In this document: positions 1,271 through 57,303 of the stretch, piece after piece
How positions within the stretch are numbered: position 1 is the stretch's first letter
How the letters are laid out: the number at the start of each line of letters is the position of its first letter
DNA from: a virus
Lineage: Duplodnaviria; Heunggongvirae; Uroviricota; Caudoviricetes
Reading direction: 5' to 3' (one strand)
IMG/VR virus record: IMGVR_UViG_3300045597_000172
DNA length: 64,000 bases
Position numbers and translations under genes: made by a program
The notes under the pieces: model-generated
What the model was told of the DNA's origin: nothing
Database searches by the model: none
Seen by the model: only the letters and a program-made list of their open reading frames with translations

Positions 1271-1321
1271 AGCGCCACAGGCGCTTTTTTTCTAAAACGA
1301 TGCATGTGTTTCCAACACATG
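1271..1321 (+). repeat. terminator + hairpin repeat unit, copy 1
   Basis: AGCGCC-ACA-GGCGCT-T6 then CATGTGTT-TCC-AACACATG; same layout and spacing at 13028-13080. Confidence 0.85.
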
Positions 1322-1372
1322 ACATATCAGAAAAACATACGAAAAAACATCCATTAGAAAGGAATTTTCAAT

Positions 1373-1870
1373 ATGTCAAACTTCTTCAAATCAAAACTTA
1401 GAAATCTTGCAATCACGAACCGATTCAATAATAAACGTGCTAAATCAAAAAAAATTGAAATCGAACACGAAGAAAAACTAAAGTTTGCACTAAAACATCC
1501 AGAAGAAACAAAACAATATCGACAAGCATTAAGAACAATTGCAATTCGACAAACTGGTGCAAACATTAAAGCATTCAGTAAATGGCTAATCATCGATCTA
1601 TTATGGTTATTACCACCCTACTTTGTATACGGTTGGTTTCAACAAGTACTTAACAACACCTTACTTGCTGATAAAATATCAAGTAAAACATTGTGGGGCA
1701 TTCAAGAACAGTTGATGCTTGGCGCAATCATTATTGGTGCACTGGTAATTCTATGCGGTGGTCAAATTATCAAGAATGGCATTTTCCATCGTCCATATAA
1801 AAAAGGATCACTTGAAAAACAAATGACTGCCTCACTTGAACGTGACAAAAAAAATAATAAACGAAACTAA
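1373..1870 (+). CDS. hypothetical membrane protein
   Basis: AGAAAGGA RBS; two hydrophobic segments. Confidence 0.75.
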   Translation: MSNFFKSKLRNLAITNRFNNKRAKSKKIEIEHEEKLKFALKHPEETKQYRQALRTIAIRQTGANIKAFSKWLIIDLLWLLPPYFVYGWFQQVLNNTLLADKISSKTLWGIQEQLMLGAIIIGALVILCGGQIIKNGIFHRPYKKGSLEKQMTASLERDKKNNKRN

Positions 1871-1934
1871 AATTAATCTTGGTATACTAATACCAAGGTT
1901 TTTTAATATTCAAGAAAGGATTATTACTAGAAAA

Positions 1935-2684
1935 ATGAAAATCATAACAAAACTAACAAATGTTAATCCAAGACCGGATGTCTCTGGATTCTTTAAATCC
2001 ACACTGCTCTTTCTAACCATGCTTATTGGAGAACAACTTTCGACCATTGTTTACTACACTGGAAGTAATTTTCATCTAAAGCTTGTTGGATTAATCTTCG
2101 GAATCTTAATCGCATGGTTATTTATCAAAACGGCAATCTCATATCAATCTAACTACGAATCATTACAACCACGTAAAGGTATCACAAAGACAGTCGTCGG
2201 ATACGTAGCACTTTTATATATATTATCAGTAACATGGGGACAAATTGGACCTAAATTATTAAACCTGAACTTAAACGGACAAACAAGCGAAAACCAAAGT
2301 AGTGTATTAAGTTTTCTAAGCGATCCATGGTCAACCGTCTTTATTATAATTATGACCGTGATAATTGCACCGATCCTAGAAGAATTTTGTTTCCGATACT
2401 TAATCATCAAACCAAAAAAACAAAATAGCAATATCATTCGTTTAATAATTTCAGTAGTCGCATTTGCATATCTGCACGTTGGCGAACAATTACCAAGCGT
2501 ACTTCATCACCAACTAACATTTGCAGCATGGTTCTTTTATTTCACCCAATATGCACTAATCGGAATAATCTTAACAACAACCTATAATAAATACCGAAAT
2601 TATAAATTAAACGTATTAATTCATGCAAGTTGGAACACTATCGCAATTGCAATCGCGATTGTCTTAAATATTATCGCTCACTAA
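1935..2684 (+). CDS. CPBP (CAAX/Abi) family intramembrane metalloprotease
   Basis: Motifs APILEEFCFR, FAYLH, LIHASWN; multiple TM; start moved to ATG 1935 after AGAAAGGA. Confidence 0.9.
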   Translation: MKIITKLTNVNPRPDVSGFFKSTLLFLTMLIGEQLSTIVYYTGSNFHLKLVGLIFGILIAWLFIKTAISYQSNYESLQPRKGITKTVVGYVALLYILSVTWGQIGPKLLNLNLNGQTSENQSSVLSFLSDPWSTVFIIIMTVIIAPILEEFCFRYLIIKPKKQNSNIIRLIISVVAFAYLHVGEQLPSVLHHQLTFAAWFFYFTQYALIGIILTTTYNKYRNYKLNVLIHASWNTIAIAIAIVLNIIAH

Positions 2685-2695
2685 TCAAACGTACA

Positions 2696-2730
2696 ACCCG
2701 TATTAATCATATTAATACGGGTATTATTTT
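2696..2730. terminator. terminator-like inverted repeat
   Basis: ACCCGTATTAAT-CAT-ATTAATACGGGT (12-bp perfect stem). Confidence 0.7.
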
Positions 2731-2760
2731 AAATAATTCTAAAAATGGAGAAAACAAGTC

Positions 2761-3360
2761 ATGAAAAATATTATCAATGAAGACCACCTTTATCACTCCC
2801 CAATTTTTGATCTATATCATGCAAAGATTCAATCGCCGAACACGAAAGAAATGATTGAACGTGACATTATCAGACATCCAGATGCCGTAGCTATTCTGCC
2901 ATATACCATTGCCAAAGCTAATCCGCACAAAATCACACGTGTCTTAACAACTGAAGAATATCGATGCGGAATCAATAAAATCTCTACTGCAATCGTAGCA
3001 GGACTAGTAGAACCAAAAGAAAATCCATTAACAACTACAATCAGAGAACTTAAAGAAGAAGCTGGGATTATTATTCCAACAACAAAACTCAACTACGTCA
3101 AAAAAATCAACAGTTCCGAAAATTTCACAGATGAATCAGTAACCGTATTCGTAGCTTGTGTTGGAACAACTTCTAATTACAGCGATCCAAAAATCAATTT
3201 TTATGACGACATCAAATTTACAAAACCCCATTTTGATAACGGCGGAGAATTTGTCAAAACAAAATGGACAACCCTAAACGAACTAAGCGACCACACAAAC
3301 GCCGCTCCATCCGTGGTCGCTGTGATGTACCTAGAATCATTATCAGAAAGAGGTTACTAA
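2761..3360 (+). CDS. Nudix hydrolase, ADP-ribose pyrophosphatase (NudF)-like
   Basis: Nudix box GLVEPKENPLTTTIRELKEEAG; HPDAVAILP and EEYR as in NudF-type enzymes. Confidence 0.85.
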   Translation: MKNIINEDHLYHSPIFDLYHAKIQSPNTKEMIERDIIRHPDAVAILPYTIAKANPHKITRVLTTEEYRCGINKISTAIVAGLVEPKENPLTTTIRELKEEAGIIIPTTKLNYVKKINSSENFTDESVTVFVACVGTTSNYSDPKINFYDDIKFTKPHFDNGGEFVKTKWTTLNELSDHTNAAPSVVAVMYLESLSERGY

Positions 3361-3361
3361 C

Positions 3362-3838
3362 ATGAAAAACAAAACACAAGAAGAATTATTAAAATCTGAT
3401 GTTCAGTATGTCACTAAAGAGGGAAATATAATTCTTCAAAACGAAATAGAAGAATATAAACATGATTACAATTCAAGTGTTTCACCAATTTATGATAGTG
3501 AAGACGTTGCTCGAATCCTAAATGCTGATACTGAAAAACAAAGAAATTGTTATATGTGTCATGCACAAATCGGTATGCGCCCATTTTCAATTAAAGAATA
3601 TCAAAAACTCTTTAAACAGTTCACGCGAAACTTTAACTCAAACGAAATCGAAACTATCGAATACTGTCAATGGTGCGGACGTAAATTACGAAAATGGGAA
3701 GTTGTATCACATCATGGAGAAAAAGACGAAACAATCGAAAGTGAACCCTTTAAGTTTAAAGAAGATGCTGAAAAATTAATGAAACAATTAAATCCAAACA
3801 TTGGACCATACACTGTTAGAGAAGTAACCGAAGAATAA
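3362..3838 (+). CDS. hypothetical protein with possible Zn ribbon
   Basis: CYMC ... CQWCGRKL. Confidence 0.65.
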   Translation: MKNKTQEELLKSDVQYVTKEGNIILQNEIEEYKHDYNSSVSPIYDSEDVARILNADTEKQRNCYMCHAQIGMRPFSIKEYQKLFKQFTRNFNSNEIETIEYCQWCGRKLRKWEVVSHHGEKDETIESEPFKFKEDAEKLMKQLNPNIGPYTVREVTEE

Positions 3839-3883
3839 TCATTCTAATACACATTGCAAGAACTAAAAAAGAAGGTCCAACAA

Positions 3884-4702
3884 ATGAAAACTTATATTTT
3901 TGCATCTGATCCGCACGGAACCGGAAAAAAATGGATCGACAACGTTAAACAAATGCAATCCATTTATCCTACTGCAATCACTATTTTCGGAGGAGATTAT
4001 ATAGATGGCCGCAAATATAGTGCTGAAACACTAAATTTCGTACAAAATCAAACCAAAACCAAAAAAAATATCGCCCTGCTCGGAAACCACGAGCAGATGC
4101 TGCTTGATTTTGTATCGTCTAATAACGAACTTGACCTTAAACTAAATTATGATCTCTGGAAAGAAAATGGTGGAAAATCAACAATCAAATCATTAACTGG
4201 TCGTAACTGGAGTTATCAACAAAGTGCTTACCAACTAAATTACCATCACCAAACATTAATTAACTGGCTAAGAACATTAAAACCACTATACATCACACCA
4301 GAAATCATCTTTATTCACGCCGGCCTAGACCTAGAAAAAGAAAATCCAATTCAAGAAACATCAAAATCAGACATGATGTGGCTTAGAGAAGACTACTGGT
4401 GGGAACCAGACAACGGTTTACGTCAAACACATTACTACTGGCATCATAATCCGCTAAGACAAGCAATCGTGAGCGGTCATACGCCAACTTGTCTCTTATA
4501 TGGACGTTACGATGACGATCTCAATCCGATTAAAGGAAATTTGAACGATGAATCATTCAATTGTCCTGTGAAAACTATTAAATATCCAAATGAAGCTCCT
4601 AGAATTTTTACAGATGGTGGATGCCACAGTCAATTAAAAAATCATAACGGTAACATTGTAGCAATAACCCAAAGTGGAAACATCCTCAACATTATCAACT
4701 AA
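3884..4702 (+). CDS. calcineurin-like metallophosphoesterase (phage Ser/Thr phosphatase type)
   Basis: SDPHG, GDYIDG, GNHE, FIHAG, GHTP, DGGC motifs; likely start ATG 3884. Confidence 0.9.
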   Translation: MKTYIFASDPHGTGKKWIDNVKQMQSIYPTAITIFGGDYIDGRKYSAETLNFVQNQTKTKKNIALLGNHEQMLLDFVSSNNELDLKLNYDLWKENGGKSTIKSLTGRNWSYQQSAYQLNYHHQTLINWLRTLKPLYITPEIIFIHAGLDLEKENPIQETSKSDMMWLREDYWWEPDNGLRQTHYYWHHNPLRQAIVSGHTPTCLLYGRYDDDLNPIKGNLNDESFNCPVKTIKYPNEAPRIFTDGGCHSQLKNHNGNIVAITQSGNILNIIN

Positions 4703-4730
4703 AATATTATTACAAAAAAGGAGAACTATT

Positions 4731-5213
4731 ATGTTTATACCAAAAAAGACAAACAAAAACTCAACTGAAGAAGAACAAGATGCAGAATTACTGCAATATT
4801 ACAAGGATCTATATATCAAAGAAAGAAAACTCACCGGTAAAACATTCGAAAATGTAAAACCAGCATTTGATTATGAACATCTAAATAACAAATTTGACAA
4901 TGTAAATAATTTCGCAGATCCTTTAATGCATAATTTACGAATCAAATTATTAGATCTAACCGAAAATAATAAAGATGAATGCACTATTGCACTTGACAGA
5001 ACATCTTTTATACAAATCACGCACATTTACGGCGAAGATCAAACTTTAATTGTTATTAACGACGAAGGTCGACTATATACAATATCATGGTATAAAAGCA
5101 GGTCACATACTGAACTATTTACTGACCTAGTAACTGCTGAACAAATCACATTACGTGAATTTATTGATTTATACCAAAGAATTGTAGAAGAAACTCATCC
5201 ACAAATCATTTAA
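4731..5213 (+). CDS. hypothetical protein
   Basis: AAGGAG RBS before ATG 4731. Confidence 0.7.
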   Translation: MFIPKKTNKNSTEEEQDAELLQYYKDLYIKERKLTGKTFENVKPAFDYEHLNNKFDNVNNFADPLMHNLRIKLLDLTENNKDECTIALDRTSFIQITHIYGEDQTLIVINDEGRLYTISWYKSRSHTELFTDLVTAEQITLREFIDLYQRIVEETHPQII

Positions 5214-5230
5214 CAAAAAGGAGACTCGTT

Positions 5231-5449
5231 ATGAAAACCATACTGATCAGTAAAATTATACAAACCCCAATCTTAGGATTGCGTGACGGAGAAGAAATAC
5301 TTAATCATCTTACAAAAAACAATATCAAGAATCCAAAATTAGTAATTAATTCTCATATGACCGGACGCTTTCTGCCCCACTTTAAAAAGCTGTTAGACGC
5401 AGCTTTAAAAAATAAAGAAATCGATTCATACGAAATCAAATTAAAATAA
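5231..5449 (+). CDS. hypothetical protein
   Basis: AAGGAG RBS, 72 aa. Confidence 0.7.
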   Translation: MKTILISKIIQTPILGLRDGEEILNHLTKNNIKNPKLVINSHMTGRFLPHFKKLLDAALKNKEIDSYEIKLK

Positions 5450-5466
5450 GAAAGAATGATTACCAA

Positions 5467-6393
5467 ATGAATAACATTAAAATTTTCACGCATACCGATT
5501 TAGACGGAATCTGTGCCGGATACCTATTAACCAACAGAATGTTCAAAAATCAAAATTGTGAAATTAACTATTGCCAAGTTAATGAGCTGGATAACACAAT
5601 CAAAACGTTTATTAAAGAAAATCCAGAAAACACAACTATGATTGTCACAGATTTAACACCGTCGTTAGAATCATTGAAATTACTAAAAAATTATCAAAAA
5701 AGTCATAAGATCAATATCAAAATAATTGATCATCACGAAAGTCGAAAAGACGCATGGAAAACATACCCAACATTCTTCCCCTTAAAATTTGAAAACTTAA
5801 ATTCACACGTATGTGCAACTAGTCTAATCAAAGACCTTTATAAAACGAAAATTGGATCAAAAACAACAATCCGATTAATTGAAGCTGTCAGATTATACGA
5901 CACGTGGGACTGGAAAAATCAAAAAGATGCAAATCCAGTTCGCTGCCAAGAAGCACAACGTTTAAATTTACTACTAGAAACATACGGCCGAGATATCTTT
6001 ATAAAACATCTCACTGAATCGCTTTCAAACAATTATCTAATTTCAAGTGAAGACAAAATTTTCTGTAACACCTTAAAACAACGTATGGACGAATACATCA
6101 AGAATCACTTTAAAGATGTTCAATATACAGAACTAAAAATTGATAATGCAACAATCAAAGCCGGTATCGTTCTTGCAACTAATCATCAATCAGAACTCGG
6201 AAATTACATTCTCGAAAATTCAAATGTTGACATTGCGATTATGTTCAAAAATGGAAAACTATCATTAAGAAGTCGAAACCACGGAGTTGATGTTTCCAAA
6301 ATCGCAAAATCACTTAACGGTGGCGGACATCCCGCCGCAGCTGGAGCAGAAATAAAAATTGACCCCGTGAAAATTATCAAACAAAATATTTAA
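5467..6393 (+). CDS. DHH/DHHA1 family phosphoesterase
   Basis: HTDLDG, TDL, IDHH, SLRS, GGGHPAAAG motifs. Confidence 0.9.
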   Translation: MNNIKIFTHTDLDGICAGYLLTNRMFKNQNCEINYCQVNELDNTIKTFIKENPENTTMIVTDLTPSLESLKLLKNYQKSHKINIKIIDHHESRKDAWKTYPTFFPLKFENLNSHVCATSLIKDLYKTKIGSKTTIRLIEAVRLYDTWDWKNQKDANPVRCQEAQRLNLLLETYGRDIFIKHLTESLSNNYLISSEDKIFCNTLKQRMDEYIKNHFKDVQYTELKIDNATIKAGIVLATNHQSELGNYILENSNVDIAIMFKNGKLSLRSRNHGVDVSKIAKSLNGGGHPAAAGAEIKIDPVKIIKQNI

Positions 6394-6412
6394 ACAAAAA
6401 AGGAAGATCCGC

Positions 6413-6865
6413 ATGTCAATTCACTCAATTTATGACCTAGACAAAATTTCAATTACTGAAAGTCAAAACAAATTAAGTATCATAAATCCAAAAGAACCTC
6501 GAAATGCTCTTGTTTATACAAGACGAACAGTCGACATTAACCTGTTAAAAATAATCAAAACCGCCATCGAAACTTATCCGGCATTAGCAAACAAAAAAAT
6601 CAACCTGTTAAAAAATCTACTTGATTCCGGAAAATTAGATGATGCTGCAATTTTTGATTTGAAAAAACTAGATTATTTTTGTGGGAGCAATCAAATCAGT
6701 ACCCTTTTTGATCTTGGCTTTCTACCTGAAAAAGATCAACAAAAGACAAATGACTTAATTAAACAATACATTCCACTACTAAGTGGTTACATGCAGGACT
6801 ACAAAGAAATCCAAATCGGAAACATCATTATTCAACCTGAAACCGCAACTAACAGAAAGAAGTAA
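6413..6865 (+). CDS. hypothetical protein
   Basis: AAGGAAG RBS, 150 aa. Confidence 0.7.
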   Translation: MSIHSIYDLDKISITESQNKLSIINPKEPRNALVYTRRTVDINLLKIIKTAIETYPALANKKINLLKNLLDSGKLDDAAIFDLKKLDYFCGSNQISTLFDLGFLPEKDQQKTNDLIKQYIPLLSGYMQDYKEIQIGNIIIQPETATNRKK

Positions 6866-6870
6866 TAATC

Positions 6871-7326
6871 ATGGATATTGGATCAAAAGATAAATACCCA
6901 GCCGGAAGCCTTAGTAACTTCGCACCGCATCCATTTGTGATTGACAACATCAAATGCAACAGCATGGAAGGCTTTTTACAATCTTTAAAATTTTCCAATC
7001 CTGACATGCAAACCAAAGTCTGTCAATTAGTTGGAATTAAAGCCAAACGCAAAGGCGGCAAAAAGAAATGGTGGAAAGCACAAATACTCTACTGGCAAGG
7101 AGCTGAAATTAGCCGTGAGAGCGAAGCATACACGCAATTAATAACTCGTGCGTATAATCAACTATCAAAAAATAAAAAGTTCGCTAAGGCACTCTTAGCT
7201 ACCAATAATGCCACGTTAACGCATAGTCTTGGAAAGCGTAAGAAAAACGAAACTGTCTTAACCAAAACTGAATTCGTTGGACAACTCACTAGAATTAGAG
7301 ACGAATTACAAAAACAAAATAATTAA
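6871..7326 (+). CDS. NADAR family protein (T4 gp30.3-like)
   Basis: LSNFAPHPFVID, MEGFLQSLK, LLATNNATLTH, TVLTKTEFVGQLTRIRDEL resemble phage NADAR proteins. Confidence 0.8.
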   Translation: MDIGSKDKYPAGSLSNFAPHPFVIDNIKCNSMEGFLQSLKFSNPDMQTKVCQLVGIKAKRKGGKKKWWKAQILYWQGAEISRESEAYTQLITRAYNQLSKNKKFAKALLATNNATLTHSLGKRKKNETVLTKTEFVGQLTRIRDELQKQNN

Positions 7327-7353
7327 ATCAAAAAAACAGAAAAGAGACTTAAT

Positions 7354-8157
7354 ATGTATGTAACACTGTTAAACATCCCAACAAAACGTCTTTACCAAAA
7401 AATAAAAGCCGATTGTAAAAAACAGCACCTTGATATTAATGCCATCATCAAAAACCGATATTGTCTACTCACGATTGATTCGCCATACGACATTCAAACC
7501 ACTACCGACAAACTTGACATTATAACTAAATCTGATTATCCGCCGAAGCTCGAAGAAACGTTACCAACCAAACTATTAAAACAAAAAATTCAACCGATTT
7601 CGTCATGGATATTTCGTCACGGTGGTTGTAATCTTGTTGCTGAAATTGTGCAACAAGAACTCAACTTAGACTGCTACATGGTTTATCACAAGTATCTTGA
7701 CTATGACGAAACCGGAACTCGAAATGACGATAATGAGCAAACGATCACGACCGAAGAATTAAATAACTTCCAACGCGACTATCACCAATTAAAACAAAAC
7801 CCGGACCCGTGGGAACAAACCTCACGCCCTATTGGCCACGTTTATTTTATTGATCATGATGCCAAAAACAAGCCAATTCTTTGTGATGGACTCGGTAAAC
7901 TACGACTTATCAAAAACAGCCATGATCCTAAACTTGAAATTAAGCAGCAATTTCGTGAAGACTTTGAAAATTTCAACTTTGATCCAATTGGCTGTCACAA
8001 AATAACTAGAGCCGAATTCACCAAATTAAATTACACGTCACCCTTATCATACTCAACAAACGCATGGTACATGCTGTTTCCACCAGTAATACATTATGCC
8101 ATTTATAAAGAACTCGTAAAATATGTACAAAAAAGACCGTGGTTAAAAAATGACTAA
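7354..8157 (+). CDS. hypothetical protein, possible papain-like Cys-His-Asp fold
   Basis: HGGCNLVA ... GHVYF ... CDGLG. Confidence 0.45.
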   Translation: MYVTLLNIPTKRLYQKIKADCKKQHLDINAIIKNRYCLLTIDSPYDIQTTTDKLDIITKSDYPPKLEETLPTKLLKQKIQPISSWIFRHGGCNLVAEIVQQELNLDCYMVYHKYLDYDETGTRNDDNEQTITTEELNNFQRDYHQLKQNPDPWEQTSRPIGHVYFIDHDAKNKPILCDGLGKLRLIKNSHDPKLEIKQQFREDFENFNFDPIGCHKITRAEFTKLNYTSPLSYSTNAWYMLFPPVIHYAIYKELVKYVQKRPWLKND

Positions 8158-8488
8158 AAAATTCAAAATATTTTACCATTGTACACCTGAAAAAAATATA
8201 ACTTCAATTTTAAACATTGGCTTAATACCGACAATTGGTAAGCATTCGTCAATGATTAACGAATTAGAACCGCAACTGTATTTATTCAATTCCAAAACGG
8301 CGCTTTCTGATGGACTATCCACATGGTTTGGTGATCTATTTGACGAAACCGAAAAATTAATAGTCATCAAACTAAAGTTAAATCTTAACGACCCCTATTT
8401 AATCTATCAAAAAGAAAGTTATGAATCACTGTACAAAAAACCAATCGTAATAACACAAAAAATGTTCTATACCGAATCAACATTTTAA
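8150..8488 (+). CDS. ADP-ribosyltransferase-fold protein (putative)
   Basis: FYHCTPEKNITSILNIGLIP then LYLF; His-containing strand-1 pattern of ART/KptA/DarT-like folds. Confidence 0.5.
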   Translation: MTKKFKIFYHCTPEKNITSILNIGLIPTIGKHSSMINELEPQLYLFNSKTALSDGLSTWFGDLFDETEKLIVIKLKLNLNDPYLIYQKESYESLYKKPIVITQKMFYTESTF

Positions 8489-8508
8489 AACAAAAAGGAG
8501 TCCTAATC

Positions 8509-8976
8509 ATGGGATGCGACATTCATGCATACACTGAAATCAAAGACAAAACGAACCAAAATTGGTTTTTAGCTGCAACTTATTATCAAAAACCAAATGA
8601 AAATAAACAGTATCAAGAAATGTACCTTGGCAGAGATTATCTAATGTTTGCTCAATTAGCAAATGTTCGAAATTATGACGATCAACCGGTCATATCAATG
8701 CCACGTGATTTACCACGTGATTGTTCTGATGAAGTACGACAACTGTCAAACAACTGGGGAATTGACGGTCATTCACACTCATATTTAACACTTGGTGAAC
8801 TTAAAGACTGGATAGCTCAACATCCAACCGTCCAATATGAAGACGATCACAACCCTGAACCAAATCCAATCAATCGTATTATTAAACACATCAATCAAAC
8901 ATGTGCCTTGTTTGAAATGGACAACAAATGCACCAATATCAATGATATACGAATCGTATTTTGGTTTGATAATTAA
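8509..8976 (+). CDS. conserved phage-type hypothetical protein
   Basis: MGCDIH...RDYLMFAQLANVRN...GHSHSYLTLGEL...RIVFWFDN. Confidence 0.75.
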   Translation: MGCDIHAYTEIKDKTNQNWFLAATYYQKPNENKQYQEMYLGRDYLMFAQLANVRNYDDQPVISMPRDLPRDCSDEVRQLSNNWGIDGHSHSYLTLGELKDWIAQHPTVQYEDDHNPEPNPINRIIKHINQTCALFEMDNKCTNINDIRIVFWFDN

Positions 8977-8991
8977 AAAAGGAGAACTAAT

Positions 8992-9465
8992 ATGAAAAAC
9001 TTAAAAATTTTCAACGAAATTACAGATTACAACGATTGGAACGTTGGCGCCGCATGGTATTTAACCGAAAAAAAATATCAAATTCCCGGTCATCATGTTA
9101 ATTATCTTACTGATGAAATTTCACCATCGGATCAAAAAGAACTTAGTCAAACACTGTTGCCATTAACAAAAAAGATCAATCCAATTGACATGTCACCACA
9201 ATTGCAAGCACTTTACCACGATCAATCAATCAAACCTGATTTATTCGAAATCGATTTACTAACATTAGTACAAAAAGTTAAACCAAACGATACGGATATT
9301 ACCTACGCTAACAAAAACAAAACCGCCATTGCCCGTTTATTAAGCAACAAAGATCGTATTTTATCGTGGCACTTTGATTTGTTTGGTTTGTTTCAAAATT
9401 TAAAACAAAAAAATAATCCCGACCAACTCAAACAAATTCGACTAGTGATTTGGGCAACTAAATAA
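8992..9465 (+). CDS. hypothetical protein, possibly diverged paralog of upstream gene
   Basis: AAGGAG RBS; C-terminal IRLVIW resembles IRIVFW of 8509-8976. Confidence 0.65.
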   Translation: MKNLKIFNEITDYNDWNVGAAWYLTEKKYQIPGHHVNYLTDEISPSDQKELSQTLLPLTKKINPIDMSPQLQALYHDQSIKPDLFEIDLLTLVQKVKPNDTDITYANKNKTAIARLLSNKDRILSWHFDLFGLFQNLKQKNNPDQLKQIRLVIWATK

Positions 9466-9532
9466 TCACAACTAAGATACACGTTAACGATCGAAGTCTG
9501 GAAACCTATTAATTACGAAAGAAGGAATTATC

Positions 9533-10183
9533 ATGGGAAATTATAATGAACGCGAATTATTTAATGAACCCAGCACAACAACAGAACCCGTTCATGTTGT
9601 ATTCTTTGTTTCACGCAATAAAGACAACTCTAATCTACCTAATTTTAAGCAACGTAAACACACATTTTTAACTACATTTTCAACAAATTCACAAAAATTA
9701 AATAATTTATTTGAACAATTTGTAAATCAAGGCGTAACTCACGAGTTATCCCGTTTTTATGTAAGTATTAATCCCCGTGATAATAAAAAAACACAAACTG
9801 CTCTTATGCACTATTTATTAGACCATGAAAATATTAATATGGCTAATTTAAACGCCATTTTGGCTAAATTAGCAATGAGTAAATCATTTGCAACTGAAAA
9901 AAATCGTATGTTTGATTTTGATCTTACTTCACGTGAAAAAGTTGATGAATTTGTTAATGACTTAGTCCAACGTGGTGCTAATAAAGAAACCATAGAAGTC
10001 GGAAAAACACTTCATGGTTATTATGTTGTTATCCAACGTGGTGTTGACTTACGCAAACTTGTTGACACCATGACAGATGCACCATTAAGTCAAAAAAAAG
10101 ATAAAGGTCCATGGAAATGGTCAAAAGATGAAGTTACCTATAAATTTGATGAACTAAAATTAGTCAAATGGAAAACAAAATAA
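9533..10183 (+). CDS. phage-type hypothetical protein
   Basis: AGAAGGA RBS; SRNKDN, RFYVSINPR, FDFD. Confidence 0.7.
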   Translation: MGNYNERELFNEPSTTTEPVHVVFFVSRNKDNSNLPNFKQRKHTFLTTFSTNSQKLNNLFEQFVNQGVTHELSRFYVSINPRDNKKTQTALMHYLLDHENINMANLNAILAKLAMSKSFATEKNRMFDFDLTSREKVDEFVNDLVQRGANKETIEVGKTLHGYYVVIQRGVDLRKLVDTMTDAPLSQKKDKGPWKWSKDEVTYKFDELKLVKWKTK

Positions 10184-10201
10184 GATCAAAGGAGCAAGAA
10201 T

Positions 10202-10630
10202 ATGCGTGTTTATCATGGCGGCACCGAATTCACTCAAAAATTTAAACGTCCATATGCCGCACTAAACGGCGGAAGCATTGGCTATTATGTTACGACCGAC
10301 TATCAACAAGCACAATGCTATGGCTTTGTACACACCTATGAATTCAGTCCAAAGTTAGATATGTCAACCACTCACTTAACCAAAGCCCAAGCCAAAAAAT
10401 TAAATCAATTAACACGATACTGGGAATCGTACGGAGAATCACCAACCAATCCTACAGCAATCGCCGCATTAATGTCTGGAAACGTATATGAATCAATGAT
10501 GGAAAGCATTAATGCAACCGGTGAAATGTCCAAAACAATTCAATATATACAGTCACTCGGTTATACCCATGCAAGTCAACCCGACCCTAACGTGTTTATC
10601 GTGATTGCTAACTTAAAACTTATCAATTAA
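10202..10630 (+). CDS. ADP-ribosyltransferase-fold protein (putative)
   Basis: VYHGG ... GYYVTTDYQQAQCYG matches the YHG / GxYxT..A..Y ART pattern. Confidence 0.55.
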   Translation: MRVYHGGTEFTQKFKRPYAALNGGSIGYYVTTDYQQAQCYGFVHTYEFSPKLDMSTTHLTKAQAKKLNQLTRYWESYGESPTNPTAIAALMSGNVYESMMESINATGEMSKTIQYIQSLGYTHASQPDPNVFIVIANLKLIN

Positions 10631-10642
10631 AGGAGCATTATT

Positions 10643-11581
10643 ATGTCTATTGCAAAAACATTATTAGATATTTTCAAATCAACCAATTTCAAATTAACCG
10701 ATGCGTATCAAGCGTGTCCGAATACACCACATCCAAGCGTTCGTGCTAGAATATATGAAAACTTAAATGTTTTGTTTGAAAGAATCGACAAGGGTGTCTA
10801 TAAAACAATCACCAACAATCAAGAAGCAATTTTAATTGAAGGTGATGGCCGTGATATTTCCTTTATCAAAGATCAATCCGTAGATTGCATCATGACTGAT
10901 CATCCGTGGGATGATAAAAAATCAAATCGTGGCGGTAGTCGAAACTTTACAACCTATAAAACATTTAAGTATAACCAACACGATTTTGATGAAAAAGCAC
11001 GTGTATTAAAACCCGGACATTTTCTAATCGAATTCATACCGAACGAAAATGCTAACAATTATGAATATTTACACGAAATCAAATCCATGGCCAAAAATTC
11101 TGGCTTTAAATACTATGCAAAAATTCCTTGGAAAAAAGGAACATTTGTCGCAAATACAGGACGTACTGCCAAAAACACTGAAGATGTAATGATTTTCACT
11201 AAAGGTAAAGCTATGGCATTACGCCCAAATGCCAAGAAAAACAAACAAACTGGAACTACTGACAATTTTATGTCAGGCGCAAAAGCAATGATGCCAACCT
11301 GTTTTGATTATCAACCACCGCGTAAAAAAGATCGTTTACATCCCAGTGAAAAACCTGTTGATTTATTGCAAGCTATTCTGTCATATGTTACAAACAACTA
11401 CGATATTGTACTTGATCAATTTACAGGAAGTGGTTCATCAATGATCGCGGCAATCAAGAATCATTGTAAGGTAATCGGCATTGAACTAAGTCATACCTAC
11501 TGCGAAAAAATTAAAAATCGTTTCAAAGAAAATAATTTGCCATTGATTGCACTAACGTCAAAAGAAACGAGTGAAATCTAA
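10643..11581 (+). CDS. DNA amino-methyltransferase (N4C/N6A, beta class)
   Basis: Motif IV variant TDHPW, HPSEKP, motif I VLDQFTGSGS. Confidence 0.9.
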   Translation: MSIAKTLLDIFKSTNFKLTDAYQACPNTPHPSVRARIYENLNVLFERIDKGVYKTITNNQEAILIEGDGRDISFIKDQSVDCIMTDHPWDDKKSNRGGSRNFTTYKTFKYNQHDFDEKARVLKPGHFLIEFIPNENANNYEYLHEIKSMAKNSGFKYYAKIPWKKGTFVANTGRTAKNTEDVMIFTKGKAMALRPNAKKNKQTGTTDNFMSGAKAMMPTCFDYQPPRKKDRLHPSEKPVDLLQAILSYVTNNYDIVLDQFTGSGSSMIAAIKNHCKVIGIELSHTYCEKIKNRFKENNLPLIALTSKETSEI

Positions 11582-12016
11582 ATGAATCAAGAAGAAAAAA
11601 AAATTTTTTTAATTATGCGTATCGGACAGAATCTATTTCAGTCATCAAAAAAAGTCCAAGCCTACAAAAAAGAAACTGGAAGATCAGTAAAACAAATATC
11701 AGACGGACATCATACATTCGAAGAATTATACGAACATCGTCGTATTTTGTCTAAAATCATTTTTGAACTAGCACCCGAATATTCATGGAAAAGTAAATTA
11801 CACGCAGACCATACTATGTTTGACGGTGATTTTATTGTCGGTATTTCTATTCCAAATGTCGGAGATTACTCCTATCATTACAAGTTAAAATACTGGAATG
11901 ACTTTAACGTAAAAGAATTACCAACGGCCCCACCCTACGATGGTCACCAACCATCAGATATTAAAAGATTATTGTCACTCATTCCGTTACTAAAAAGTAA
12001 AAAAAAAGGAAGATGA
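11582..12016 (+). CDS. phage-type hypothetical protein
   Basis: SDGHHTFEELYEHR motif; coupled to MTase gene. Confidence 0.7.
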   Translation: MNQEEKKIFLIMRIGQNLFQSSKKVQAYKKETGRSVKQISDGHHTFEELYEHRRILSKIIFELAPEYSWKSKLHADHTMFDGDFIVGISIPNVGDYSYHYKLKYWNDFNVKELPTAPPYDGHQPSDIKRLLSLIPLLKSKKKGR

Positions 12017-12020
12017 CTAA

Positions 12021-13022
12021 ATGGCCTATACTTGTGAACACTGTGGTGACATTGTTAAAAACCTTGACGACTACGATCATAACGATGATGGTTGGTGGTG
12101 TGATTGTAACAACTATGGTGATCTTGGATATTTCAACTTTTTTGATAAGTCAAAAAAGCCACAACTCAAAATTTATTTAGAAAGTGATCATGACGGAATT
12201 CCTATCAAATCATTGCCTAAAAACAAGAAAGTAAAATCACAAATAAGTCCATTCCGATATCCCGGAGGAAAAAGTAAACTCGCAAAATACATCGCTACCC
12301 AAATCAGACCGACTTATCAAAATACTTTAATAAGTCCGTTTTGTGGCGGTGCAAGTGTAGAGCTTGCATTACTAGAATCAAATATCGTAAATAACCTCGT
12401 TCTAAACGATTTAGACCCACTTATCTATAATGTATTCAATATGATTTTAAAACACCCCACTGAGCTGATTAACGAGTTAAAATCAATAAATATCGACCAT
12501 CAATTATTCAACCACGCAAAAAAAATCGTACTTGGAAAAGAAATTGAGAATAATTCAATCACTAAAGCAGCACTGACTTTAATAAACAACCGCTGCTCAT
12601 ACTCTGGCATATATTATGCTGGAGCACTTGGTGGAAAAAACGGAGATGTCAAAACATTAACATCAAGACTGAATATCCAAAACTTATGTGAAAAAATCAT
12701 AACTATAAACAAACTTCAAAATCATATTACACTCTTAAATTTAGATGTTCATGCAATCCTAAATGAATATACAGGCAATCACAATACTTTATACATTGAT
12801 CCGCCTTACGTGAAAAATGGACCAAAACTATATGCCAAAAATTACGGTACACTAAACGAACACTATAATTTGTTACTTGACGTGCAATCAAATTTTGAAG
12901 AATTCCCAAGCGACGACATATTATTGTTTTACGACGATGACGAATTTATTGATCGATATTGCATCAATCAGCCCATTAAACTACGACGAAAATTCAGCAT
13001 TAACAAAAAATCAAATCCTTAA
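12021..13022 (+). CDS. Dam-like (D12 class) DNA adenine methyltransferase with N-terminal Zn ribbon
   Basis: SPFRYPGGKSKL, SPFCGGASV, NDLD, YIDPPY; N-terminal CEHC...CDC. Confidence 0.9.
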   Translation: MAYTCEHCGDIVKNLDDYDHNDDGWWCDCNNYGDLGYFNFFDKSKKPQLKIYLESDHDGIPIKSLPKNKKVKSQISPFRYPGGKSKLAKYIATQIRPTYQNTLISPFCGGASVELALLESNIVNNLVLNDLDPLIYNVFNMILKHPTELINELKSINIDHQLFNHAKKIVLGKEIENNSITKAALTLINNRCSYSGIYYAGALGGKNGDVKTLTSRLNIQNLCEKIITINKLQNHITLLNLDVHAILNEYTGNHNTLYIDPPYVKNGPKLYAKNYGTLNEHYNLLLDVQSNFEEFPSDDILLFYDDDEFIDRYCINQPIKLRRKFSINKKSNP

Positions 13023-13027
13023 CACAA

Positions 13028-13080
13028 AGCGCCACAGGCGCTTTTTTTACAATACGATTAATGTGTTTCCAACACATTAA
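13028..13080 (+). repeat. terminator + hairpin repeat unit, copy 2
   Basis: AGCGCC-ACA-GGCGCT-T6 then TTAATGTGTT-TCC-AACACATTAA. Confidence 0.85.
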
Positions 13081-13119
13081 CCATACATAGAAAATCATTT
13101 AAGAAAGGATGATCCAACC

Positions 13120-13497
13120 ATGTTCATCGCAAAATTTACTAACCCAGAAATAATGCCATTCAAAAAACTAATGTTGGAGGATTCTCAACCAATAAAAGAC
13201 CTCACATCTTATCAGTCATACTGCATGTACCAAAACTATTATTTCCAATCCGCCGTCAATGAATTAATGATTCGCAAACACCAAAACACAAAATCTATCG
13301 TGCTTGCAAGAATCAAAATCAATCATCGAAACATTGGAACCGCCACAAAAATCATTAAAAACCTAGAAAATCTAGCTAAAGAATTAAATTACAAAGAAGT
13401 AATCATTGAATCCATTTTAACTACTGAAATGTGGAACTTAGCAGATTCACTTGGATACCAAAAAAAAGAATTCGACGCAATTAAAAAAATACAGTGA
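13120..13497 (+). CDS. GNAT acetyltransferase-like protein
   Basis: HRNIGTATKIIKNLENLAKELNYKEVIIES resembles GNAT motif A. Confidence 0.6.
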   Translation: MFIAKFTNPEIMPFKKLMLEDSQPIKDLTSYQSYCMYQNYYFQSAVNELMIRKHQNTKSIVLARIKINHRNIGTATKIIKNLENLAKELNYKEVIIESILTTEMWNLADSLGYQKKEFDAIKKIQ

Positions 13498-20721: not shown

Positions 20722-20809
20722 GCAAAACAAAGACCATGAGAGAATCGATTCACGTTCGCTGCGTGATGGTCTTTTTATAATCTCAAAATATTAAAAAAAG
20801 GATGATTAC

Positions 20810-23134: not shown

Positions 23135-23158
23135 AACGCACCAGCCGGTGCGTTTTTT
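23135..23158 (+). terminator. Rho-independent terminator
   Basis: AACGCACC-AGCC-GGTGCGTT + T run. Confidence 0.8.
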
Positions 23159-23197
23159 AGTTTACAGTTATCCAAAAAAAACCAAGAGGACGATAAT

Positions 23198-34832: not shown

Positions 34833-34856
34833 AATTTAATGATATATCATTATATT
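34833..34856 (-). promoter_or_regulatory. -10 box overlapped by 16-bp palindrome (operator-like motif copy 2)
   Basis: Minus strand TATAATGATATATCATTAAATT; perfect palindrome TAATGATATATCATTA 34837-34852. Confidence 0.55.
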
Positions 34857-57186: not shown

Positions 57187-57285
57187 GTCCTTTCACCTAG
57201 AATTTTCTAAAAGTATTACTACTTTCATGTTTACATTATAACAAACATCTAACCCATAATACTAGTCCTAAATCGACACATTTTA

Positions 57286-57303
57286 ATGATATTTCATCAA
57301 ATT
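57286..57303 (+). promoter_or_regulatory. operator-like motif copy 3 (ATGATATTTCATCAAATT)
   Basis: 1 mismatch to copy 1; upstream of pilin-like gene promoter region (TGtTATAAT on minus strand near 57235-57243). Confidence 0.5.

Follow-up and report, generated by a model that had tools for sequence, protein, structure and literature searches.

What does a short, conserved hairpin do when it stands directly behind a strong transcription terminator and directly ahead of a long run of genes? This question is raised by a 64,000-nucleotide (nt) stretch of DNA (the window) from the IMG/VR virus record IMGVR_UViG_3300045597_000172, which is putatively part of a giant conjugative, plasmid-like element of a low-GC Gram-positive host. 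The window carries two copies of a 51-nt unit in which a strong intrinsic terminator is followed, 12 nt further on, by a small conserved hairpin. The comparisons described here show that the hairpin is maintained as a folded structure, and we tentatively favor the view that it acts in RNA that has passed the terminator.

Anatomy of the repeated unit

Unit 1 begins with an intrinsic terminator on the + strand (positions 1270-1291) composed of a 7-base pair (bp) GC-rich stem, an ACA loop, and a T7 run. An A-rich spacer with a single GA dinucleotide (1292-1302), whose length is kept and whose sequence is about half variable, leads to the hairpin (1303-1321). This hairpin has an 8-bp stem and a TCC loop that reads GGA on the - strand, and it can be extended to 1300-1325 with one bulge. 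The ribosome-binding site (RBS) AGAAAGGA and the ATG of a 165-amino acid (aa) gene lie at 1356-1375. Unit 2 has the same layout on the same strand: an intrinsic terminator (13026-13048) located 4 nt past the stop codon of a Dam-like methylase gene, an A-rich spacer that also contains GA (13049-13057), a hairpin with a 10-bp stem and a TCC loop (13058-13080) that reaches 15 pairs on the - strand via two G.T pairs, and the RBS AAGAAAGGA with the ATG of a 125-aa gene (13101-13122).

The two units are 90% identical over 51 nt (repeat finder, family D7). There are two exact occurrences of the 20-nt terminator string in the window, compared with 0.01 expected by chance, and the 17-nt hairpin core has exactly two matches, both on the + strand. 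In each unit the loop begins 40 nt from the terminator start (1271 to 1311 in unit 1 and 13028 to 13068 in unit 2). Beyond the 7-bp core, the stem is lengthened by a C..G pair to 8 pairs in unit 1 and by TTA..TAA to 10 pairs in unit 2. Each unit leads into a strong RBS and an ATG (at 1373 and 13120) and then into tightly packed + strand genes. An initial annotation of this DNA had described two copies at these places, the 40-nt distance, outer arms that differ yet remain complementary, a GGA loop on the template strand, and an RBS with + strand genes beyond each unit, and our analysis bears out all of these points.

A third copy and the search for relatives

The same annotation had counted only two visible copies, and here it fell short. 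We examined approximately 82 kb of DNA, consisting of the 64-kb window plus L139:1-18334, with a covariance model (R1) built from seven unit sequences. This model revealed a third, diverged copy at L139:2651-2728, about 15.7 kb to the left of window base 1 (44 bits, E 1e-7), which brings the number of copies to at least three. Copy 3 is located after a stop codon and before an RBS, and its hairpin has the arms ATGTGTC and AACACAT around a TAC loop. Its terminator loop is 4 nt and its spacer is 11 nt, with the consequence that the 40-nt distance from terminator start to hairpin loop is preserved. All three terminators have the makings of an intrinsic terminator, namely a 7-8-bp stem, 5 GC pairs, and a T7 run, and one terminator variant carries a U.G pair on the + strand.

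Terminator and hairpin occur together in all three paralogs, and at least five terminators occur without a hairpin. A model of the hairpin alone detected no further copy in the 82 kb or in related elements. Exact searches for the 17-mer in viral, genome, and metagenome collections gave only single chance matches with unrelated flanks, and a looser pattern that combined a T run with a degenerate hairpin had no matches among viral contigs. Likewise, megablast of 13 kb against phages and against plasmids returned no match. Rfam 15 at the gathering threshold yielded no matches across the whole window, and the best subthreshold match over unit 1 reached 22 bits where 55 were required. Assignment to a small RNA of a known Rfam family was therefore dropped. 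Judged by these sequence searches, the family to which the unit belongs is new, having neither an Rfam match nor relatives found outside this element family.

Conservation in related elements

Related elements were reached via homologs of the genes just downstream of each unit. Looking for the motif beyond the window and in relatives, as the initial annotation had proposed, proved productive on both counts: in addition to the third copy, units were recovered in four or five related elements, where they occupy the two orthologous positions; the flanking proteins of these lineages are 69-81% identical. Both units are present in L054, unit 1 in L055, and unit 2 in L051 and L061. The unit is absent from the methylase lineage L141 (65% identity) and from the distant element L142, and no analogous repeated cassette is present in L142, L055, or L051.

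L061 has undergone a deletion of the 3' half of the terminator and the hairpin of unit 1, and a promoter, a palindrome, and an RBS, whose counterparts in the window are described below, remain in its sequence. At unit 2 of L061, the hairpin is perfect, the terminator is degenerate, and the downstream gene is truncated. In a second deletion, this lineage has lost the RBS behind unit 2 together with the first ~40 codons of the following gene; the two deletion regions are L061:3715-3850 and L061:6064-6170.

Between the paralogs, about half of the spacer positions differ, compared with 1 of 14 in the core stem, and the sequence 3' of the stem is not alignable among the three. Within an element, both units share the middle base of the terminator loop, but this base differs between elements (ACA/ACA in the window, and AAA/AAA in L054 at L054:2364-2386 and L054:9908-9930), a pattern that could reflect concerted change or chance (1 in 4).

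Evidence for a selected hairpin structure

Across eight sequences, 93% of the stem cells are paired, compared with 23-57% when the partners are slid. One stem pair is A-T in five sequences and C-G in three, and another position gains an A-T pair. Beyond the invariant 7-bp core, the paralogs have 1, 3, or 2 extra complementary pairs that differ in sequence, an arrangement with a chance probability of about 3e-4 at this base composition. Both hairpins are retained in RNA folds (z-scores of -4.3 and -5.4), and DNA folds give z-scores of -4 to -5.6 on either strand with similar folding energies on both. The hairpin is a genuine selected nucleic-acid structure, beyond a mere duplex palindrome. The conserved inner stem and loop ends, combined with outer pairs that are free to vary but remain complementary, point to a hairpin that is folded and recognized, and they argue against a simple duplex operator.

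The loop offers clues regarding the strand on which this structure might act. It reads TCC on the + strand in six sequences, TTC in L051, and TAC in copy 3, which corresponds to GGA, GAA, and GTA on the template strand, and the middle base alone varies. With both end positions of the loop invariant, all three variants preserve G-N-A on the template strand; the chance that both changes would fall on the middle base is about 1 in 9. Three stem cells are non-standard. In both L051 and copy 3 the cell is an A.C mismatch on the + strand but a G.T pair on the - strand, and L055 shows the reverse. We did not assign a strand from this asymmetry, since 2 to 1 in favor of the - strand is too few, and since the L051 change follows the mutational bias of the element itself.

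Promoters, terminators, and read-through

A sigma-A-type promoter, TTGCCA-17-TATACT (1206-1234, + strand; 10/12 matches), is located immediately upstream of the unit 1 terminator, and its TTG and TATACT are invariant in the window, L054, L055, and L061. The initial annotation had noted no obvious -35/-10 elements at the units. This statement holds for the interval between terminator and RBS, where a promoter scan found no promoter-like hexamer pair in any copy, but not for the region upstream of the unit 1 terminator. Between the -10 box and the terminator there is also a palindrome around ATGATATATCAT (1247-1266, + strand), which may be an operator or a leader RNA hairpin and which, like the promoter, is conserved in four lineages. 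Because L061 retains the promoter, the palindrome, and the RBS without the hairpin, the host-type promoter is the ancestral driver of the downstream gene, with the unit residing inside its leader. Moreover, given that the promoter is conserved where the unit is present, its transcripts presumably pass the terminator.

Several other terminators on the + strand are followed so closely by a gene that they face the same difficulty. The next ATG lies 28-40 nt beyond the terminators at 366-384, 2696-2722, ~20735-20776, and ~23140-23160, and a promoter does not fit into so short a distance. Read-through or antitermination would consequently be needed in this gene block in any event. As an observation in its own right, such promoterless terminators imply leaky termination, processive antitermination, or a terminator-insensitive polymerase. 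Internal terminators and antitermination have been documented in the conjugation operons of Gram-positive elements (PMC8955417, PMC11658703).

Other identities for the unit or its parts were considered and set aside. A sigma-A promoter within the unit is contradicted by -10-like hexamers in the spacer that shift register, by the lack of a -35 box, and by the loss of the key A2 or T6 position in unit 1 of the window and in copy 3. A leader peptide was rejected because the ATG within the stem has no RBS, and LexA, CRP/Fnr, and Fur-type boxes were rejected because the spacing does not fit. For attC, IS200/IS605 ends, and oriT, the T7 run and the position after a stop codon fit a terminator better. 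A nut/put-like antitermination site was discarded because the hairpin comes after the terminator, not before it. No antisense promoters were seen to the right of the units.

Strand composition of the element

On the + strand, C exceeds G in every bin over the 82 kb. Third-codon-position GC skew is -0.42 in + strand genes and +0.46 in - strand genes when viewed on the coding strand. The skew is thus independent of gene orientation, and the - strand is G/T-rich throughout. Relatives share the sign of the skew, and an unrelated element has the opposite sign. It follows that the template strand of the + strand block is the G/T-rich strand, the type that is more often single-stranded. This composition fits a block that is readable from transferred single-stranded DNA, but unidirectional replication could give the same skew. 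Approximately 50 kb of + strand genes are carried on the C-rich strand.

A possible role in read-through RNA

The explanation that we slightly favor, while holding it only tentatively, is that the hairpin acts at the RNA level in read-through transcripts as a processing, stabilizing, or protein-binding element. The unit would then serve as a boundary module in an extended run of same-strand genes, punctuated by terminators, that belongs to a Gram-positive conjugative element. The intrinsic terminator that forms its first half, strong but otherwise ordinary, would stop unmodified host RNA polymerase, and some transcription would pass through by leakiness or by processive antitermination. Two features call for such read-through: unit 1 separates a conserved host-type promoter from its gene, and several other terminators stand directly before an RBS. 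In the resulting RNA, the second hairpin would be a specifically recognized 5'-leader stem-loop that follows an A/U-rich, GA-bearing spacer. It might direct an endonuclease, perhaps one like RNase Y, to its cut site and/or shield the resulting 5' end from a 5'-exonuclease; alternatively, it might bind a regulatory protein. The outcome would be that the mRNA level of the downstream genes is uncoupled from that of the upstream genes.

This explanation is consistent with the coupling of hairpin and terminator in all three paralogs and with the location of unit 1 downstream of a promoter kept in four lineages. The L061 deletion, the closely spaced terminators, and the RNA folds count in its favor as well. 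The spacer is A/U-rich and unstructured, contains GA in 7 of 8 sequences, and has the hairpin 1-4 nt later. These features agree with the weak signature of RNase Y targets, a GA within AU-rich sequence that is followed by structure (PMC11780869), and so fit an RNA-level role. A comparable order of elements has been described for saePQRS of Staphylococcus aureus, where a terminator is followed by a cut site and, 6 nt downstream, by a double-stranded element (PMC5449607). The units resemble this arrangement in that a terminator, an A/U-rich single-stranded stretch, and a double-stranded element a few nt on are placed between co-transcribed genes of a Firmicute. They differ from it in that the sae guide is a 24-bp long-range duplex, whereas ours would be a local triloop hairpin for which cleavage is inferred.

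Several points weigh against an RNA-level role. At 8-10 bp, the stem falls far short of the 24-bp sae element. Sequence conservation of the inner stem and loop ends is greater than a purely structural RNase Y guide needs, and the core sequence conservation likewise exceeds the needs of the sae model. Of the three stem cells that are not Watson-Crick pairs, two, found in L051 and in copy 3, form G.T pairs on the - strand but A.C mismatches on the + strand. To our knowledge, the loop in + strand RNA, U-N-C, is not a known stable or recognized motif, whereas G-N-A on the - strand is. Finally, the terminator looks strong, so read-through must be assumed.

Alternative explanations

The preference for G-N-A leads directly to a different proposal, namely that a DNA hairpin on the template (-) strand is an initiation site for the element's own putative single-chain RNA polymerase. 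We regard this as possible but on balance unlikely. The hairpin would form on transferred single-stranded DNA or by supercoil-driven extrusion and would serve early transcription and/or complementary-strand priming, and the preceding terminator would insulate the unit from host read-through. In its narrower form, in which all three hairpins are template-strand start sites read on the incoming strand during conjugation, for early transcription and/or priming, we find the proposal doubtful. A close parallel is provided by the early promoters P1-P3 of coliphage N4, which are small template-strand hairpins with a 5'-GGA-3' loop, located at the heads of early gene blocks and associated with a very large element-encoded polymerase (here putatively the 3325-aa protein). 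As in the N4 virion-polymerase promoters (PMC4496689), the inner stem and loop ends are conserved and the outer stem is variable but complementary, and in their stem of 8-10 bp and 3-nt loop our hairpins resemble the N4 type (5-7-bp stem, 3-nt loop). GNA mini-hairpins mark N4 promoters, the G4 origin, and ssiA (PMC13037366), and G-N-A is kept here as GGA, GAA, and GTA. Furthermore, the units are found where a promoter is expected, yet there is no conserved sigma-A promoter from terminator to RBS. By its skew, the template strand of the block is of the type exposed as single-stranded DNA, and the methylases, Nudix protein, nuclease, and ligase look like products of establishment or anti-defense genes. 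However, the skew could stem from replication alone, only three copies are present in 82 kb, and these are always fused to a terminator. The stem is AT-rich, and its closing pairs are T:A (T.G in copy 3) rather than the C:G of the stable mini-hairpin or of the GC-rich N4 heptamer, GCGGAGC. The loop center of copy 3 is T, but N4 needs a purine, and L055 has a C.A mismatch on the - strand. In N4 the stretch from -17 to +1 is conserved and transcription starts 11 nt after the loop center; here nothing downstream of the stem is conserved, and the sequence between hairpin and putative start cannot be aligned between copies. The putative polymerase is of the two-barrel, beta-beta' type and is unrelated to the T7-like enzyme of N4. 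In addition, unit 1 already has a conserved host promoter, and its locus in L061 lacks the hairpin.

We consider it improbable that the palindrome is instead recognized as duplex DNA by a dimeric regulator. Sitting 10-12 bp beyond the T run, such a protein would tighten termination as a roadblock that stalls RNA polymerase on the U tract, or it would repress an unrecognized promoter. The dyad symmetry, from 7 + 3 + 7 up to 10 + 3 + 10 bp, the near-constant distance from the T run (12, 12, and 11 nt), and the invariable coupling to a terminator would suit this arrangement, and Gram-positive plasmids provide a precedent for establishment genes under operator control (Reg576; PMC6294495). Nevertheless, outer arms that differ yet are complementary would arise by chance at only ~3e-4 for three paralogs, and the asymmetric conserved loop bases (T..C) are left unexplained by a symmetric dimer. 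No promoter overlaps the site, and no regulator gene was recognized nearby. A simple operator, which the initial annotation had offered as its alternative, is thus our least favored option, as it sits poorly with covarying outer arms and an asymmetrically conserved loop. Little credence can also be given to the idea that the hairpin has no function of its own and was copied along with a useful terminator cassette, its stem substitutions being slow to fix. The three units are indeed paralogs of one cassette, and the terminator stem, whose signal is purely structural, matches the hairpin core in conservation. Against this, the spacer is about half diverged while only 1 of 14 core stem positions has changed, the outer stem carries compensated changes, and the hairpin of L061 is perfect despite a decaying terminator and a truncated downstream gene. 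The remaining probability is reserved for mechanisms that are not listed here.

Parallels with other mobile elements and implications

The hairpins also invite comparison with F Frpo, ColIb-P9 ssi, RSF1010 ssiA, and the G4 origin, which are DNA hairpins active only on DNA that is single-stranded as it enters the cell or replicates. The GNA mini-hairpin is shared with ssiA and G4, and the genes of the Frpo/ssi systems are oriented such that the single strand is the template, as would be the case in our element. However, Frpo is an ~300-nt hairpin that rebuilds -35 and -10 boxes for host polymerase, whereas the hairpins here span 19-23 nt and the unit contains no promoter-like hexamer pair. The ssiA and G4 signals differ in that they are read by primases.

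The gene block as a whole resembles those governed by conAn of pLS20 and canT of Tn916, in which long same-strand operons are studded with intrinsic terminators that need to be bypassed and that insulate against outside transcription. The known antitermination signals lie upstream of the first terminator, unlike this hairpin, which comes just after one, and neither a conAn1-like gene nor a canT-like RNA was identified in the DNA examined.

We know of no promoter for the orphan two-barrel polymerases of mobile elements. For YonO, a start site but no promoter sequence has been reported (PMC5467207). The module described here offers three short, defined, conserved candidate sites for such polymerases. 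If the hairpins were DNA start sites, conjugation would have its own version of the phage N4 strategy, and this orphan polymerase family would gain its first assigned promoter type. If an RNA-level role is correct, the unit would be a compact, portable terminator-plus-leader-hairpin part that punctuates very long operons of large Gram-positive conjugative elements. Under both readings, the orientation-independent skew and the block layout predict, in testable fashion, which strand is transferred.

Gene setting

Genes on the + strand encode methylases, a Nudix protein, phosphoesterases, a T4 gp30.3-like protein, a nuclease, nrdDG, and a ligase. Those on the - strand encode a lysozyme/NlpC hydrolase, a class A penicillin-binding protein, glycosyltransferases, and the 3325-aa protein. 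Within the latter, Pfam and PHROGs recognize only a NADAR domain, and tblastn with this putative polymerase matched plasmid proteins at 24-28% identity only, with no phage match. Nothing links the hairpin to this protein.

Palindromes of the TTTAATGATATATCATTAAA type occur just downstream of sigma-A-type promoters at three places: at unit 1 (1247-1266, + strand) and at ~34835-34854 and ~57282-57301 on the - strand. The two - strand sites belong to an HU-like gene and to the operon that holds the 3325-aa gene. The palindrome could serve an element repressor as a shared operator, or it could form a nut-like hairpin in the leader. Regarding the genes that directly follow the units, the 165-aa product behind unit 1 has no recognizable relatives, and the 125-aa product behind unit 2 (13120-13497) has a predicted fold like that of GNAT acetyltransferases, with phage-associated look-alikes.

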